This document shows, piece by piece, positions 34,948 through 42,177 of a DNA stretch of 64,000 bases. The translations under genes were made by a program, and so were the position numbers. The notes beneath the pieces were generated by a model. That model had not been told where the DNA came from, did no database searches, and saw nothing but the letters and a program-made list of their open reading frames with translations. Each line of letters begins with the position of its first letter. Within the stretch, counting starts at the first letter, position 1. The DNA comes from Anaerolineae bacterium. GTDB taxonomy: Bacteria; Chloroflexota; Anaerolineae; UBA1429. The DNA lies in contig OY776562.1 of NCBI GenBank assembly GCA_963675785.1, positions 2,720,001 to 2,784,000 of the forward strand, in the 5' to 3' direction.

Positions 34948-37095
34948 ATGGAAGAACAAACGGTCCTCTTACAATCAAAAGAGCTTCTTGATCGGGTACG
35001 CGCCTATTACCCTGAAGATGTAGAGCGTGTGCAGCACGCCATCGATTACGCCATCCAGGCGCATGATGGGCAGTTTCGCGTGTCTGGCGATCCTTATATC
35101 GTACACCCGCTTGAGGTAGCCATCATCCTTGCAGATTTGCAAATGGATGTCTCTACCGTCATTGCCGGCATATTGCACGATGTTGTTGAGGATACCGGGG
35201 TCACTCTGGAGGAACTATCCGAGCAGTTCGGATCCACAGTGGCTCAACTAGTAGATGGTGTTACCAAGCTGTTGCGTGTCAAACGAAAGAGCAAGGTAGA
35301 TACCGACGATCTGGACGACGAGCAGGCTGAAAATCTTCGCAAGATGATATTGGCCATGGTGGATGATATTCGAGTTGTCATCATCAAACTGGCCGATCGC
35401 CTGCATAACATGCGCACACTGAGTGCGCTACCCCGAGAGAAACAGATACGCAAAGCCCGTGAGACCCTTGAAGTGTACGCTCCCCTGGCCAACCGCATGG
35501 GTATCTGGCAGCTCAAATGGCAACTCGAGGATCTTTCTTTTCGTTATCTGAACGAAGAAAAGTATTACGAGATTGCACAATTGCTGGCCGAACGCCGTAG
35601 CGACCGCTCTGGCTACCTTGAGCGCGTCATCAACAGTATCAGAGATAACCTTGCTGCACAGGGCATCCAAGCCCGCATTACGGGCCGCCCCAAGCACATC
35701 TATAGCATTTACCGCAAGATGATGACTAAAGCACGCGTTTTTGACCATATCTATGACGTACGCGGTATTCGCATCATCGTTGATCAGGTGCAAGATTGCT
35801 ACCACGTGCTGGGCATAGTCCATACCATGTGGCGGCCTATCCCCGGCGAATTTGACGATTACATCGCCATGCCCAAAGACAATGGCTACCAATCGCTGCA
35901 TACGGCAGTGGTAGCCCTGGATGGTCGCCCTCTTGAAGTGCAAATCCGCACCGAAGAGATGCATCAGGTTGCCGAGTTCGGTATCGCCGCCCACTGGCGG
36001 TACAAAGAGGGAGTTAAACGGGATAAATCCATCGAAGACAAGATAGCCTGGCTGCGACAGGTGACTGACTGGCGCGAAGAAGTAGAAGATGCTGGCCAGT
36101 TTGTTGATTCGATGAAGAGCGATGTCTTTGTCGATCGTATCTATGTCTTTACCCCCAAAGGCGAGATCATTGACCTCCCCCAGGGGGCCACCCCCGTTGA
36201 TTTTGCATATCAGATCCACTCTGAGATTGGCCACCGCTGCCGCGGGGCCAAGATCGATGGCCGCCTTGTCGCGCTCGATTACAAACTCAAGACGGGCGAC
36301 CAGGTAGAGATCATCACTGCCAAACAGGGCAAGCCCAGTCGTGACTGGCTCAACTCCAGCCTGGGCTATGTTGCCACACAACGTGCACGTCAAAAGATTC
36401 GCCAGTGGTTTAGGCGGCAAGAGCGCGAACAGAACATCTCCGCAGGCCGCGAAATACTTGAGCGTGAATTACACCGTCTGGGGTTCGAACAGCAATCTTT
36501 TACCGAGATAGCTCACCTTTTCAAGTACGACCGTGTCGAAGACTTTATGGCCGCGCTTGGTTATGGCGATGTCAGCCGAACCCAAATCGCTGCCAAGATC
36601 GATGCGGCTGAGCAGAAAACCGACGGCCTCAAACTCAAGGATCTCACTTTTAGCAGCGATACCGAGGTTCAGGTCGATGGTGTTGGTGATCTGCTCACAA
36701 AATTCGGGCAATGCTGCAGCCCCGTGCCTGGTGATGCTATCGTGGGGTACATTACACGTGGCAAAGGTATTACCATTCACCGTGCCGATTGCCCCAACAT
36801 CGTCAACTTGGACGACAGCGAACGCCTGATTAATGTATCCTGGTCGCAAGGGGAAAAGATTTATGCCGTTCAGCTGCGCATAGACGCATTTGATCGACCA
36901 GGCATGTTAAGGGATATTGCTTCTATTGTTGCAGATGCAGGTATCAGTATGTCTTCCGTCAATGTGACTTCCAACCCTGATAGTACCACTACCATCAAAG
37001 CAAGCATGGGGGTTCATAGTGTTACTGAGTTAGCTTCCCTCATCAACAAGCTACAAGGCATTCGAGACATTCTGGATGTCACCAGAATGGCATAA
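34948..37095 (+). CDS. relA: Bifunctional (p)ppGpp synthetase/hydrolase Rel
   Basis: Intact 'LHDVVEDT', 'KLADRLHNMRTL', 'GRPKHIYSI', 'NGYQSLHT', 'EVQIRT', TGS and ACT domains. Confidence 0.97.
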   Translation: MEEQTVLLQSKELLDRVRAYYPEDVERVQHAIDYAIQAHDGQFRVSGDPYIVHPLEVAIILADLQMDVSTVIAGILHDVVEDTGVTLEELSEQFGSTVAQLVDGVTKLLRVKRKSKVDTDDLDDEQAENLRKMILAMVDDIRVVIIKLADRLHNMRTLSALPREKQIRKARETLEVYAPLANRMGIWQLKWQLEDLSFRYLNEEKYYEIAQLLAERRSDRSGYLERVINSIRDNLAAQGIQARITGRPKHIYSIYRKMMTKARVFDHIYDVRGIRIIVDQVQDCYHVLGIVHTMWRPIPGEFDDYIAMPKDNGYQSLHTAVVALDGRPLEVQIRTEEMHQVAEFGIAAHWRYKEGVKRDKSIEDKIAWLRQVTDWREEVEDAGQFVDSMKSDVFVDRIYVFTPKGEIIDLPQGATPVDFAYQIHSEIGHRCRGAKIDGRLVALDYKLKTGDQVEIITAKQGKPSRDWLNSSLGYVATQRARQKIRQWFRRQEREQNISAGREILERELHRLGFEQQSFTEIAHLFKYDRVEDFMAALGYGDVSRTQIAAKIDAAEQKTDGLKLKDLTFSSDTEVQVDGVGDLLTKFGQCCSPVPGDAIVGYITRGKGITIHRADCPNIVNLDDSERLINVSWSQGEKIYAVQLRIDAFDRPGMLRDIASIVADAGISMSSVNVTSNPDSTTTIKASMGVHSVTELASLINKLQGIRDILDVTRMA

Positions 37096-37128
37096 AAAAA
37101 CAACCCTCTGCAAGCAGGGGGTTGTTTT
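37094..37128. terminator. Bidirectional intrinsic terminator
   Basis: AAAACAACCCTCTGC-AA-GCAGGGGGTTGTTTT. Confidence 0.8.
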
Positions 37129-37149
37129 CACAAGTTCTAATGAATCGAT

Positions 37150-38388
37150 CTAGAGATCAGGGATCATGGAAGATGTCCAATAACTCTTGACGTCATCCGC
37201 AGCACGTTGTTCTGCGAACCACGCATCCGCGGCATCCTCTTGCACAAGGCTAAGTGAGTATTCGTCCAATTCCATATCCTCAGCCTGGTCGGTCACTTTG
37301 AGCAATTCCCAACCATTCGACGTCTCAACCGGTTCGCTGGTCTCGCCAACTTCAAGTGCAAAGGCCACTTCAGCTAGCGCATCAGACATCTGCGCCGCAG
37401 GAACCCAACCAACTTCGGCACTCACGCTCATATCGAGATTCTCTTCACGCTCCTGAGCCATCTCCTCAAAGCTGGCCCCCGCGAGTACCAGTTCGCGTGC
37501 AGTCTGAGCTTCTTCCTCAGTATCAAAAGCCATTCGCCACAAATAGATCTGCTCGGCAGTAGTCGGGGCCTCTGCCATAATAGCATTCTGGACGGCCTCT
37601 AAATACAAAGAGTTTTCTACAAGCTTGTATAGATCCTCTTTGGTATACCCGGAGGCCGCCTCAATACTGGTGAAATAAGAGTCGGCTGTCGTCTCGTATT
37701 CTTCTTGTGTCATGGGTACTTCAGTAGGTGTTGCAGTAGCCTCAACTGTGGCGGTAACCGTCTCAGTTGTCGTAATAGAATCCGTCACTATTGCTGTAGG
37801 TACCGTAGTTGCTGTGGGAACAAGTGTCGCCGTAATAGTCTCAGCAGCAGCTATAGCAGTTGCCGAAGCTGCATCGGCTTCACGGTCATAGCCAAAGGTG
37901 CTCTCGACCTCAAGCTGAACCTCTTCATCCGTGATGACAATACCGCGAGCCTCTGCCTCGCGTCGAGCGATGGCATAGTTCAAGAGCTCGTCCAACACAG
38001 TTGTTGGCAGTTCCTGAATCTCTTGTTGAACAGTTTCAATCTCTGACTCGTACGTCGAGACAAGGAAGGACAAATCCTCACTCGAGTTAAAATAGTCAAC
38101 ATAGTCGTTCAGCGTCGAAAGCTCATCCCACAATGTTACAGCACGATAAGCATATAAACCTTGATAATCGGCCAATGTGATCTTTTGGTCGCCTACTCTG
38201 GCAACTGCCTTGTTTGGCTTCCATGAATACTCGTAAAGGGCACCAAAAACAAGAATCGACACAACCAAACCGATTACGCCGTAGGTGCTAATCTTGGCAA
38301 TGCGATCCATACGTTCCTGTCGAGCACGGTGTGACTTGTGCTTGGGGCTCAGGAACTCGTCAGAGGGTCTAACTGACTTTTTAGACAT
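37150..38388 (-). CDS. SurA/PrsA-like membrane-anchored peptidylprolyl isomerase (parvulin)
   Basis: N-terminal TM, 'VARVGDQKIT', T/P linker, rotamase 'FEEMAQE...VGWV...AFALEVGETSEPVETSNGWELLKV'; RBS AGGAG. Confidence 0.85.
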   Translation of the reverse strand: MSKKSVRPSDEFLSPKHKSHRARQERMDRIAKISTYGVIGLVVSILVFGALYEYSWKPNKAVARVGDQKITLADYQGLYAYRAVTLWDELSTLNDYVDYFNSSEDLSFLVSTYESEIETVQQEIQELPTTVLDELLNYAIARREAEARGIVITDEEVQLEVESTFGYDREADAASATAIAAAETITATLVPTATTVPTAIVTDSITTTETVTATVEATATPTEVPMTQEEYETTADSYFTSIEAASGYTKEDLYKLVENSLYLEAVQNAIMAEAPTTAEQIYLWRMAFDTEEEAQTARELVLAGASFEEMAQEREENLDMSVSAEVGWVPAAQMSDALAEVAFALEVGETSEPVETSNGWELLKVTDQAEDMELDEYSLSLVQEDAADAWFAEQRAADDVKSYWTSSMIPDL

Positions 38389-38400
38389 ATCGTCTCCTAG

Positions 38401-38437
38401 AAACAAAAGAGGGGCACTGGCCAACGCCCATGCCCCT
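38401..38437 (-). terminator. Intrinsic terminator after the S6-S18 fusion gene
   Basis: AGGGGCA...TGCCCCT followed by CTTTTGTTT on the minus strand. Confidence 0.65.
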
Positions 38438-38489
38438 ACCAAAGACCCCTGCAATCATTTCAGCTCTTGCCGCAAAGCGGTGCGAATGA

Positions 38490-39086
38490 CTAGTCGTTCT
38501 CACGCACGTGCGCAGGCGCATAAGGCAACAGAGCCATATAGCGAGATCGCTTGATGGCGTTAGAGAGCATGCGCTGGTGCTTGGCGCAGGAATTCGTCCG
38601 GCGTCGCGGCAGAATACGCCCACGCTGATTGACATAGCGTCGTAGAGTAGCTACATCCTTATAGTCGATCTCATCGATATTCTCAACACAAAAGTTGCAA
38701 ACCTTTTGATGATGACGGTGCGAACGCTGCTGATCTCCACCAGAGCGAGATCCACCCTCTTCATCCTGTTCTGCATCTTGGACTTCTTCGACGACAACTA
38801 CTGGCTCAACCCTGAGCATAATGTCGCGAAGTATGTCTTCAGACAGTCGCAGTGCTCGCTTGACAGCTTCAAGTGCGGGGTTACTCATCTCAGCAAGAAC
38901 CAAGACATAGTGCCCGTCCCGATATCGACCGATAGGATACGCCAGCTGCCTCTTGCCCATATCCGTCACTTTGGTTATAACACCCTCGTTCGAGGTAATG
39001 GTTTCTTTTACCTGCTCGACGAGAGCGTTGAGCTGCTCCTCTTCCAAAGTGGGCTGCACAACAAACAATAATTCGTAACTACGCAA
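38490..39086 (-). CDS. rpsF-rpsR: Fused 30S ribosomal proteins bS6-bS18 (198 aa)
   Basis: N-half '[12 protein letters not shown]...[10 protein letters not shown]...GHYVL...LRLSEDILR' is S6; C-half 'KVCNFC...[50 protein letters not shown]' is S18; no stop between; TTG start behind GGAGGAGG. Confidence 0.93.
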
Positions 39087-39093
39087 GATGGTG

Positions 39094-39163
39094 CCTCCTC
39101 CCTGCGGATTCGCCCCACTCCTTTTTACGACGTTGGCCACGTCGTTACGGTGGGGCAGAAAGG
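39094..39163 (-). promoter_or_regulatory. S6:S18-type ribosomal protein leader RNA
   Basis: Minus strand: CCUUUCUGC can pair with GCAGGGAGG (overlapping the SD); inner stems CCCAC/GUGGG and ACGACGU/ACGUCGU; a CCG at the junction 5' of the SD-containing strand. Confidence 0.7.
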
Positions 39164-39195
39164 TAACTATCGATGCGCCAAGCGCATCATCATAG

Positions 39196-39224
39196 ATTAT
39201 ACGTGCTAGCGCACGACCTGCCAA
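39196..39224 (-). promoter_or_regulatory. Sigma70 promoter of the rpsF-rpsR fusion
   Basis: TTGGCA-17 nt-TATAAT. Confidence 0.7.
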
Positions 39225-39230
39225 AATGAG

Positions 39231-39908
39231 CTATGTTCTAGTCTCTCGGGCTTGTTCTAGTATAGCTGCAGACCATTCACAGCCACCTTTTTGCAAAGCA
39301 TAGGGGCATGCTTGTAACGGATGCACGGGGATATCCAATTCAAGGCTTGCAAGCGCATTATACAGATGGCAAAGCGGCAACCCCATTACGTTGGCATAGC
39401 ATTGTTGAATGCTCTCAACGGGCTGAAACGCATTGGACTGGATGGCATAAGCGCCCGCTTTGTCCATAGGGTTCCCCGTTGCGACATATTGGAATATCTC
39501 AGCATTTGTGTACTCTCGCATCTGCACAGGCGTAGTGGCCAGTTGTATGTTCGCAATGCCTCGCACTTGACAAATAACGGCCAAGCCCGTATGAACAAGG
39601 TGTTCTCGACCACGCAAACGCTGCAGCATTTCAACCGCTTGAGCCTCATCTGCGGGCTTACCCAAAACCGCATTATCGATGACAACCAGGGTATCCGCAG
39701 CAATAATGACCGATTCATGATACTCTTGGCTAACTACACAAGCCTTGGATTCAGCCAGGCGAAGAGCTAACGCCTCAGGGACTTCACAGTCATGGGGATT
39801 CTCGTCGACATCAGAAACAATTATATCGAAATGCAGACCTAAACTACCGAGTAGCTCGCTCCGCCGAGGTGAACCTGATGCCAATACAATCTGAATGACA
39901 TGATCCAA
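39231..39908 (-). CDS. maf: Maf family nucleoside triphosphate pyrophosphatase
   Basis: 'LASGSPRRSELL', 'IIAADTLV', 'LGKP', 'DKAGAYAIQ', 'NVMGLP'. Confidence 0.94.
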   Translation of the reverse strand: MDHVIQIVLASGSPRRSELLGSLGLHFDIIVSDVDENPHDCEVPEALALRLAESKACVVSQEYHESVIIAADTLVVIDNAVLGKPADEAQAVEMLQRLRGREHLVHTGLAVICQVRGIANIQLATTPVQMREYTNAEIFQYVATGNPMDKAGAYAIQSNAFQPVESIQQCYANVMGLPLCHLYNALASLELDIPVHPLQACPYALQKGGCEWSAAILEQARETRT

Positions 39909-40097
39909 AATAGTTACCTACCTCTGTCTCTTTTACTATCGATTATATGGACAGTCCACTGGAGCTTCAAATAGATTAAATGCCTATTGTAACTTTTATG
40001 CTGCTTTCCTTTACTTTGTGTTAACCATGCACTACAATGGGTTGGACATTGTGACCCAGCCATAGTCTGCATTTCAGAGACGGATGGGGAGGAAAAG

Positions 40098-40808
40098 ATG
40101 GACCCCAAGGCAAAATTACTCATTATTGATGATGATACAACACTGATCAAAGCCTTGGAGATGTATCTCACGCGAGAGGGCTATGAGGTACACCTTGCTA
40201 ATAATGGTATGGACGGCCTCAAGAGCTTTTACACATTGAGGCCGGAACTTGTTGTGCTTGATGTAATGATGCCCGAAATGGACGGCTGGGAGGCTTGCCG
40301 ACGTATACGTGAACTCTCGACCGTACCGATCATCATGCTCACCGCCAAAGGCCAAGAGAATGATCGGGTTATGGGTTTGAGGCTTGGCGCAGATGATTAC
40401 GTGCCTAAACCCTTTAGCCTTAAAGAACTCGTTGCCCGTGTTGAGGCTATCCTCCGCCGCACGAAAATGCAGGAATCTAGTACAAGCACGAATAATGTAT
40501 TGTATGTTACCGAGAACATCCTGATCGATTCGGAAAACTGGGAAGTTCGCCGTGATGGCGACCGCGTTGAGCTGACTTCGACAGAAATGCGCCTACTCTT
40601 TTACCTTGCCGAGAACGCCGGGCATGTCCTCTCGCATCAACAGCTCCTCCAAAAAGTGTGGGGACCCGAATACGTTGATAACATGGACTATACCAAACTG
40701 TATATCTGGCGACTCAGGCAAAAGATCGAGGAAGACCCCAAGAATCCCCGTTACATCCTCACTGCCAGGGGAATTGGATACAGAATGCAAAGAGCTGACG
40801 CGGTCTAG
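40098..40808 (+). CDS. OmpR/PhoB family response regulator (no adjacent kinase)
   Basis: 'IIDDD', 'LDVMMPEMDG', 'IMLTAK', 'GADDYVPKPF', wHTH 'YIWRLRQKIE...TARGIGY'. Confidence 0.95.
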   Translation: MDPKAKLLIIDDDTTLIKALEMYLTREGYEVHLANNGMDGLKSFYTLRPELVVLDVMMPEMDGWEACRRIRELSTVPIIMLTAKGQENDRVMGLRLGADDYVPKPFSLKELVARVEAILRRTKMQESSTSTNNVLYVTENILIDSENWEVRRDGDRVELTSTEMRLLFYLAENAGHVLSHQQLLQKVWGPEYVDNMDYTKLYIWRLRQKIEEDPKNPRYILTARGIGYRMQRADAV

Positions 40809-40857
40809 GCCGCGTCTTTTTTTGCCCTATACACATGAATCCGCGACAGAGCTTGTC

Positions 40858-40886
40858 TTGACACACCCTAGCGGCTGTGTCATACT
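40858..40886 (+). promoter_or_regulatory. Sigma70 promoter of the tsaE operon with an embedded inverted repeat
   Basis: TTGACA-17 nt-CATACT; TGACACA-10 nt-TGTGTCA. Confidence 0.55.
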
Positions 40887-40976
40887 TGCGAATACTGTGC
40901 CTGGTCAAACACTCTGGTGTCTACTGATAATCCTCTGCCAGAGCCTTAAACACCCCAATCGGGGAAAGGACGTCAC

Positions 40977-41510
40977 TTGCTAGAACCGGTGACTACCCTC
41001 AGAACGCGAACCCACAACCCAAATGAGACACGAATCCTGGGTGCTGCCTTGGGCAAAGAGCTTCAGGCTGGTTTTGTCGTCTGTTTGAATGGCGATTTGG
41101 GCTCAGGGAAAACATGCCTGACACAGGGCATCGCCAAGGGATTGTGTGTAAGCGGTGTCGTCAATAGCCCCACCTTTGTTTTTATCAACGAATACACTAC
41201 GCGAGAAAACGGCCTTTGTCTTTACCATGTTGACCTCTATCGCATCCAAAACTCTCTGGATGCACTGGCTCTCGGCCTAGAGGACTATATGTATGGCAAT
41301 GGCGTAACAGTTATAGAATGGCCCGAAAGGGCAATCGACCTCCTGCCGGAAGAATGTCTTTGGGTGCACCTAACTTATGTGGATGATCAGGAGCGCCAGT
41401 TTGTCATCAAAGCAGTAGGTGAGCGCTATATAAAGGCACTCAAGGCATTCCTTGATTCATCTCAAGATCTCGGCTTGACCCTGGAGACCCTCGATGCTGA
41501 TAGCAATTGA
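40977..41510 (+). CDS. tsaE: t6A biosynthesis ATPase TsaE
   Basis: 'GDLGSGKT', 'VNSPTF', 'YHVDLYRI', 'VIEWPE'. Confidence 0.95.
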   Translation: MLEPVTTLRTRTHNPNETRILGAALGKELQAGFVVCLNGDLGSGKTCLTQGIAKGLCVSGVVNSPTFVFINEYTTRENGLCLYHVDLYRIQNSLDALALGLEDYMYGNGVTVIEWPERAIDLLPEECLWVHLTYVDDQERQFVIKAVGERYIKALKAFLDSSQDLGLTLETLDADSN

Positions 41511-42177
41511 TACAGCAACCCGCTTTGCAAGCGTATGCCTCTATGATGAGCAGGGCATTGTCGAAGAACATGCCTGGCGATCCAACAACAACCACTCGGT
41601 AGAGACACTACCGGTCATACACAACATGCTTACTCGTCAGGGCATAGTTTCTTCAGATATTGCTGCTATCGCCGTCGTTACGGGTCCCGGCTCCTTTACC
41701 GGCCTTCGCATTGGCATGAGCATTGGCAAAGGATTAGCCTTAGCGCTGGGCATTCCCATTTTAGGTATCCCAACGCTTGACGTAACCGCTTATGCAGCTG
41801 GAGATCCCGGCATGCCCGTTCTTGCTGTCCTCGAAATAGGAAGAAATCGGATATGCGTAGGCCGCTATACTTTTCAGGAAGGCTTGCCTGTCCTTGATCA
41901 AGACACTCTTCTCGTTTCTACCCAAGAATGGGTAGCTGATGCCTCTGAACCGGTCTTTGTTACCGGAGAGATAAGCGAAAAGTTGGCCACCAGATTGTTG
42001 GCTCAGGATAATGCCGAAAATATCTCGCTCTCTTCCATGGCAGGATCGATCCGTCGCTCTGGCTATCTGGCAGAACTTGCTTGGGAGCGCTTTTCTGCCG
42101 GGGAAAGCGATAACCTGGATACGCTAAGCCCGGTTTATGCTCATCATCCTCAATCTGGTACGGGATCAGAGGCATGA
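41494..42177 (+). CDS. tsaB: t6A biosynthesis protein TsaB
   Basis: 'LIAIDTAT', 'HSVETLP', 'GPGSFTGLRIG'. Confidence 0.95.
   Translation: MLIAIDTATRFASVCLYDEQGIVEEHAWRSNNNHSVETLPVIHNMLTRQGIVSSDIAAIAVVTGPGSFTGLRIGMSIGKGLALALGIPILGIPTLDVTAYAAGDPGMPVLAVLEIGRNRICVGRYTFQEGLPVLDQDTLLVSTQEWVADASEPVFVTGEISEKLATRLLAQDNAENISLSSMAGSIRRSGYLAELAWERFSAGESDNLDTLSPVYAHHPQSGTGSEA

Follow-up and report, generated by a model that had tools for sequence, protein, structure and literature searches.

An in-frame rpsF-rpsR fusion encoding ribosomal proteins bS6 and bS18 as a predicted single chain in an Anaerolineae bacterium

Ribosomal proteins S6 and S18 are a textbook pair whose members must join before they can bind rRNA. 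In the canonical arrangement, known from E. coli, B. subtilis and T. thermophilus, they are two chains encoded by rpsF-(ssb or priB)-rpsR. Published accounts of 30S assembly describe dimerisation of S6 and S18 before they bind the complex of rRNA and S15 (passages of PMC4647458), and the bulged CCG of 16S rRNA is read by S18 through Lys71 and Arg74 in T. thermophilus and through K60 and R63 in E. coli (passages of PMC3854524 and PMC4647458). The same passages report that the S6:S18-binding motif in the rpsF leader (S6S18CBM, or rpsF_leader) mimics this CCG bulge. The motif is outlined in PMC3854524 as a hairpin with a bulged loop, in which the Shine-Dalgarno (SD) sequence forms part of the stem on its 3' side and is preceded, at 2-3 nt, by CCR. 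Our full-text search of the literature found no description of a natural S6-S18 fusion. A term search of the prokaryotic ribosomal protein survey by Yutin et al. 2012 (PMC3353972) returned none of the terms 'fusion', 'fused' or 'S18', and PMC2837039 names rpsF and rpsR only in lists of duplicated or non-essential genes.

Here we analyse a locus from an Anaerolineae bacterium (phylum Chloroflexota; assembly GCA_963675785.1, contig OY776562.1) in which both proteins are encoded by one open reading frame. All positions refer to the window, a stretch of 64,000 nucleotides covering positions 2,720,001 to 2,784,000 of that contig. The product has the same two complete domains as the canonical pair, with an S6 fold matching at TMt 0.97 and the K-R-x-R RNA-contact motif of S18 kept. 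However, where the canonical pair consists of two chains, the gene described here encodes one polypeptide with approximately 32 residues, predicted to be disordered, between the domains and no gene between them. The upstream region also resembles the described rpsF leader, being directly upstream of rpsF with the SD in a 3' strand and a CCR bulge (compare PMC3854524 and PMC4647458, in the parts that define the motif); whereas the described regulator is the heterodimer, the presumed regulator here would be a single chain. The S6-S18 fusions that we found in other lineages have the same order, S6 then S18, and linkers unrelated to that of the window protein. We regard the fused S6-S18 as a variation on a known pair, not as a new system.

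The fused reading frame and its leader

The rpsF-rpsR frame comprises 198 codons on the minus strand, running from 39086 to 38490 with the stop codon (38490-38492) included. The first-pass annotation of this DNA had given the position correctly and had left the strand unstated; its description of a full S6 and a full S18 in a single 198-codon frame holds, both domains scoring above curated cut-offs. The bS6 domain (38799..39086, residues 1-96), supported by Pfam, TIGR00166, AlphaFold2 (AF2) and Foldseek, begins at a TTG start codon (39086-39084) that has GGGAGGAGG (39102-39094) 7 nt upstream. It is followed on the same strand by a linker of 32 residues (38703..38798, residues 97-128) and by the bS18 domain (38493..38702, residues 129-198), supported by Pfam and TIGR00165. 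The first part is placed in bS6 by full-length matches over the curated cut-offs of Pfam Ribosomal_S6 (PF01250; residues 4-91, 95.8 bits, cut-off 27, profile positions 2-89 of 90) and of the NCBIfam equivalog TIGR00166 (residues 1-94, 89.2 bits, cut-off 42.9, positions 1-94 of 95). Full-length matches over the curated cut-offs likewise place the second part in bS18, by Pfam Ribosomal_S18 (PF01084; residues 136-187, 88.1 bits, cut-off 21, profile positions 1-52 of 52) and by the equivalog TIGR00165 (residues 126-190, 95.9 bits, cut-off 38.75, positions 4-68 of 70). Pfam recognises no third domain in the protein, only the two ribosomal ones.

The linker is acidic first and rich in Gly, Ser, Arg and His after. 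The string reported for it at first pass corresponds to residues 95-127 and contains no stop, and direct reading of the frame bears out the further claim that the linker lacks an in-frame start, with ATG, GTG and TTG all absent between codons 90 and 173. The CxxC...CxxH pattern defines the zinc-binding class of S18, to which the domain had been assigned; Cys130, Cys133, Cys167 and His170 are present as described, and the pattern is also found in the split relatives of the family. The motif K179-R180-S181-R182 aligns with the KRSR of solved S18 chains, the best of which matches the S18 part of the fused protein at E 2e-22, and across 27 aligned fusions R182 never varies and K179 hardly does. 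We infer that K179 and R182 match Lys71 and Arg74 of T. thermophilus and K60 and R63 of E. coli, the E. coli numbering being transferred via the motif. One member of the protein's sequence cluster has 244 residues and matches the long frame that starts at TTG 39224, a TTG that also opens the promoter-like hexamer TTGGCA discussed below. This start is probably 46 codons too long, because S6 starts at the downstream TTG after a GGAGG-type site in 20/20 aligned family relatives.

The gene had been credited with a promoter, a leader and a terminator of its own; the first two are supported, but the terminator hairpin is weak. A sigma-70-like promoter match on the minus strand (39196..39224; TTGGCA-17 nt-TATAAT, 11/12 positions) is the only one in the region, where shuffles average 1.3, and it is suggestive only. 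The terminator-like hairpin (38412..38429, minus strand) is followed by CTCTTTTGTT; it starts 60 nt past the stop codon, before the gene for a PpiC-type rotamase, and the region contains two such hairpins, where chance alone would give 1.2.

The leader (39087..39165, minus strand) resembles S6S18CBM, with stems P1 and P2, a hairpin and a 3' bulge with CCG. Upstream of rpsF, all 21 of the 21 aligned family genomes, fused and split alike, carry the block ACCUUUCUGCUCC, then a variable hairpin and then GGGGCAAACCCAGAGGAAGGAGG. P1 pairs CCUUUCU with the Shine-Dalgarno region (columns 4-10 with 78-84 of the alignment), P2 closes the hairpin (columns 11-17 with 60-66), and the 3' bulge between P1 and P2, as read from the alignment, is CCA or CCG in 21/21 leaders. 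In the window it is CCG at 39107-39105, 2 nt before the SD. The RNAalifold consensus comprises 14 pairs, 5 of them with compensatory changes. Leader cells were paired in 95.5% of cases, against 47-73% for slid controls, and 14 were changed on both sides, against 3.1 in shuffles. None of 500 shuffles reached the observed paired cells, both-side changes or covariation score, although the pairs were counted on the very alignment that had yielded the structure, which flatters this support. The minimum free energy (MFE) fold of the window leader contains the hairpin and lacks P1 (z = -1.88), and an Rfam scan of 38000-39700 gave no match for the leader at E<=1. In the family consensus, as distinct from the window MFE fold, the hairpin and bulge directly precede rpsF and the SD forms part of the 3' side of the stem, and all 21 leaders have CCR in the bulge. 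Judged from the alignment, the gene keeps the family-wide rpsF leader with the defining features of the S6:S18-binding motif.

Misassembly across the junction had been named as a possible source of error, and the contigs from three studies that span it agree base for base. Over 38350-39250 (901 bases) each of these contigs is in one piece, with 0 differences and 0 gaps; they were built independently from three runs (depths 59, 239 and 12), one of which may be the source of the genome itself. In a fourth run (metagenome X10) 21 of 30 bins were covered, with the junction outside the coverage. The host genome is a single contig of 3,217,757 bases, estimated to be 94.8% complete. A profile search found no match to a second S6 or S18 gene elsewhere in these 3,217,757 bases; the separate rpsF and rpsR copies that the first pass had proposed to look for were not found, and the fused frame is the sole S6 and the sole S18 match. 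Close relatives, to which it had also pointed, are fused in the same frame at 98% identity (P0002, from another assembly) and at 80% identity (P0003, from a metagenome contig). The linker of P0003 differs from that of the window protein by insertions and deletions of whole residues, which means that the frame has survived the divergence.

A structure of the fused protein was modelled with AF2 from the alignment of 27 fusions (mean pLDDT 84.3, pTM 0.76). pLDDT falls below 50 only at residues 97-123 and 196-198, and block means are 94-97 over residues 1-90. The beta-alpha-beta-beta-alpha-beta fold of S6 is present in the model (E2-10, H16-32, E36-52, E55-67, H69-81, E85-93), and the best Foldseek match is 9fy1_f, an S6 chain of B. 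subtilis (TMt 0.97, rmsd 0.8 Å). Each of the 50 listed Foldseek matches is a lone S6 chain, and none of the best 60 of 126 PDB sequence matches is a solved structure with both domains. The model points to a packing of the two domains against one another, since a pTM of 0.76, itself an indirect sign of ribosome-like domain packing, is high for a protein whose larger domain makes up less than half of its length. At about 3.5 Å per residue of extended chain, the thirty-odd residues modelled as disordered could span about 100 Å, which is expected to exceed the size of the heterodimer. Much shorter joins occur naturally: in P0079, Pfam places the end of S6 at 94 and the start of S18 at 101, and the corresponding positions are 90 and 110 in P0119. 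Such very short joins suggest that the S6 C-terminus and the S18 N-terminus lie close together, provided that P0079 and P0119 are genuine.

Gene order and fusion events in the family

The neighbours of the fusion in the window (34948-42177) are housekeeping genes, and rplI is not adjacent to it. Just upstream lies Maf (39231-39908, minus strand) and just downstream a PpiC/SurA-like rotamase (37153-38391, minus strand). Further out are a RelA/SpoT-type (p)ppGpp enzyme (34948-37095), an OmpR-type response regulator (40098-40808) and TsaE (40977-41510), all three on the plus strand.

The absence of ssb between the two domains had been taken at first pass to mean that ssb had moved elsewhere in the genome, and this is where we found it. 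A standard SSB is encoded at G000:C1:2200464-2200778 (104.6 bits, 142 aa, C-terminal end ...EEEIPF), adjoining an unrelated gene. A weaker second SSB-domain match (G000:C1:1388434-1388736, 40.3 bits) lies inside a 263-aa open frame and may be a divergent or fused SSB paralogue. Among family genomes with both rpsF and rpsR on one stretch, ssb lies between the two in 0/26, compared with 14/16 genomes from other families of the class. The distance between the S6 and S18 domain matches in the family is 81-397 nt. One of the two exceptions in other families has S6 and ssb together with S18 on another contig, and the other has an 824-nt gap without a match to the SSB query. Because ssb lies between the genes in none of the 26 family genomes, its departure is, by comparison of gene order, a family trait older than the fusion.

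In the split members of the family, S18 has approximately 40-60 residues before CxxC, acidic first and Arg/Gly-rich after, a composition matched by the linker of the fused protein. This extension makes the family's S18 far longer than solved S18 chains, which have 54-98 residues in total. Some of the extensions (L019, L024, L033, L034 and others) contain runs such as GGGGGGGDRRGGFRRGGRRG. Start codons are weak family-wide in both genes: rpsF starts with TTG in 20/20 aligned relatives (L017-L040), and rpsR starts with TTG after a strong GGAGG in 15/20 split relatives.

An uninterrupted full-length match to the fused protein was found in 3 of the 42 family genomes (24 genera), namely the window genome, G002 and G041. 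Several further candidates were rejected. G007 (L023) gives a strong match read through '1 TAG' and is easily mistaken for a fusion; its S6 ends in TAG and its S18 begins in the same frame about 19 codons on with a TTG start, which makes it split. In G001, G004, G012, G015, G017, G018 and G022 translation showed 1-5 stops between the domains, and these are also split. The two other fused genomes, G002 and G041, belong to genus g3, in which G043 and G044 are split, with S6 stopping after ...VRMDxxEE and S18 in another frame behind AGGAGG and a GTG start. The junction of G042 contains unknown bases, and no match was obtained in G024.

We built a tree from the concatenated S6 and S18 domains (32 rows). 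The window protein groups with its 80% relative (support 100), and the four species of genus g3 form a group of their own (support 100) with the fused pair nested inside (support 92). The fewest state changes on this tree are two, with 17 of 29 inner branches open and the backbone poorly resolved. The two fused lineages share 44-47% identity. This low identity, the mixed state of genus g3 and the differing junctions together argue, at the level of sequence, that the family holds two independent fusion events.

Beyond the family, a sample of the phylum (401 genomes, 218 genera) gave no further uninterrupted match at E<=1e-33 with the window protein as query, a threshold that a distant fused gene could escape. 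A search of named genomes, with the window genome excluded, returned 33 loci, none of them an uninterrupted full-length match; 32 covered the S18 part only, and in the remaining one residues 64-189 of the query matched across 830 bases. In a second family of the class, f20 (G240, G258, G298 and G449), rpsF and rpsR lie in one frame with no ssb between them. These pairs resemble the fused gene in lacking an intervening ssb and in the shared frame, but they keep a stop codon and a separate ATG for S18, and two proteins are encoded. The spacer in these loci (L097-L100) consists of the stop codon and approximately 12-30 nt that hold an SD, for instance TAA TCAGGAGTAAAA ATG. This layout suggests tight translational coupling, and on paper the f20 pairs are one step, a single substitution, short of fusion.

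S6-S18 fusions outside the family

A HMMER scan of 1.84 billion cluster representatives gave 12,885 matches at E<=0.001, and 25 S6-S18 fusions were found among the best 150 of these, all 25 passing both Pfam cut-offs. S6 is N-terminal and both domains lie in one frame in 27/27 proteins tested, as in the window. The 25 distant fusions share 28-40% identity with the window protein, have unrelated linkers and mostly lack the S18 cysteines; several of them begin like S6 proteins that we take to be proteobacterial. Eight clusters that are not close kin of the window protein were looked up, and seven of them are singletons from metagenome assemblies; the eighth has three members from several sources. 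Three of the fusions are doubtful and may stem from frame errors in the assemblies they come from. In P0025 a truncated S6 is joined to S18 by about 100 residues, in P0087 the linker runs to about 115 residues rich in Arg and Ala and the S18 is partial, and in P0049 the S6 match stops at profile position 80.

In the ESM Atlas, three clusters with 61, 55 and 65 members are auto-named S18/S6 domain-containing. Both Pfam families are found on 84-100% of their members; among the few members with a known phylum, Pseudomonadota is commonest in two clusters and Gemmatimonadota in the other. The window lineage is not alone in carrying the fusion, which is present, unremarked, in public collections. 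The 28-40% identity, the unrelated linkers and the absence of the S18 cysteines from most of them argue for separate origins of the distant fusions. With two origins within the family and these differences elsewhere, common descent of all fused proteins is not what the comparison indicates; on sequence criteria the S6-S18 architecture is rare yet recurrent, with separate origins, and not a single family.

A probable tethered heterodimer and its alternatives

At this locus rpsF and rpsR are genuinely fused in frame, as the only source of bS6 and bS18, and the product very probably works as a single-chain, tethered heterodimer. By its sequence, the single-chain S6-S18 most likely acts as a tethered version of the usual heterodimer, and we infer that it stays uncleaved and is seated in the 30S subunit. 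The events that would have led to it begin with the departure of ssb from the rpsF-rpsR interval in the family, before the fusion. The two frames would then have been joined by the loss of three elements: the stop of S6, the start of S18 and, between them, the short spacer carrying the ribosome-binding site. The former N-terminal extension of S18 would have become the flexible tether of approximately 32 residues, a view favoured by the acidic-then-basic make-up that the linker shares with it. The product would fold into the two usual domains and bind the h22/h23 junction of 16S rRNA after S15, and it would probably also bind the CCG bulge of its own leader, repressing its own translation.

Fusion would fix the stoichiometry at 1:1, as the first pass had supposed, and would spare S6 and S18 the step of finding a partner. 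Any advantage from fixed stoichiometry is conjecture. The fusion may instead be a nearly neutral change, tolerated owing to the flexibility of both the C-terminus of S6 and the N-terminus of S18; given that 3 of 42 family genomes are fused, a neutral event fits as well as selection for fixed stoichiometry.

The main rival to this reading is post-translational cleavage, in which the linker is cut after translation and the ribosome still holds a separate S6 and S18, the fusion coupling their synthesis only. The linker is predicted to be disordered (pLDDT <50 over residues 97-123) and would be accessible to proteases, and nothing in the sequence forbids such a cut; however, we recognised no protease site or self-cleaving element in it, Pfam sees only the two ribosomal domains, and the very different and even very short linkers of other fusions (94 to 101 in P0079) are hard to square with dedicated processing. 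We consider cleavage unlikely, with a slim chance of being correct. It is more improbable still that S18 is also made separately, through internal initiation or reinitiation within the fused frame. The lineage does tolerate unusual starts, as the TTG of S18 after a strong GGAGG in 15/20 split relatives attests, but the stretch from codon 90 to codon 173 offers no in-frame ATG, GTG or TTG within it, and the sole candidate, the ATG of codon 90 itself, falls within the final strand of S6 with no GGAGG-like site before it (by eye).

The least probable alternative is that the fusion is an artefact of assembly or sequencing, or a decaying pseudogene backed by intact genes elsewhere. Long-read, single-contig genomes can carry indel errors, and this one is estimated to be only 94.8% complete. 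Against an artefact stand the contigs from three studies, identical base for base, and a frame that is kept at 98% and 80% identity and again in the separate fusion at 44-47%. Against a pseudogene, the genome contains no other S6 or S18 match, and both domains score like those of normal family members. This alternative is close to refuted.

A bolder version of the tethered heterodimer, to which we give only a small chance, would make the linker itself active. S6, S18 and bS21 form a pocket on the 30S platform that holds the 3' tail of 16S rRNA in Bacteroidia (PMC9976891). By this proposal the acidic, His-rich loop of approximately 32 residues, fixed at its two ends, could be placed near the anti-Shine-Dalgarno and the mRNA exit and could tune SD-dependent initiation or alter the order and speed of central-domain assembly. 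If it were true, the repeated, independent appearance of fusions in at least three phyla would point to recurrent selection for covalent coupling of S6 with S18, and the single-chain protein would be the first one-component autoregulator of the rpsF leader.

The fused genes also matter for annotation, as they may carry the name of one domain only or a start that is too long; the only name that we saw for a fused cluster is 'small subunit ribosomal protein S6'. Pipelines that rely on marker genes and assume S6 and S18 to be separate could count them wrongly. The fusion itself is here represented by a clean, verifiable example in a one-contig genome with a graded series of relatives. These relatives provide a comparison series for studies of assembly and autoregulation, passing from genes with ssb between them to adjacent genes, to genes separated by little more than a stop codon, and to the fusion. 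The fusion implies that the C-terminus of S6 and the N-terminus of S18 are near enough to be joined. That a free-living bacterium has a natural single-chain S6-S18 as its sole copy suggests that a permanent tether is tolerable for the pair.
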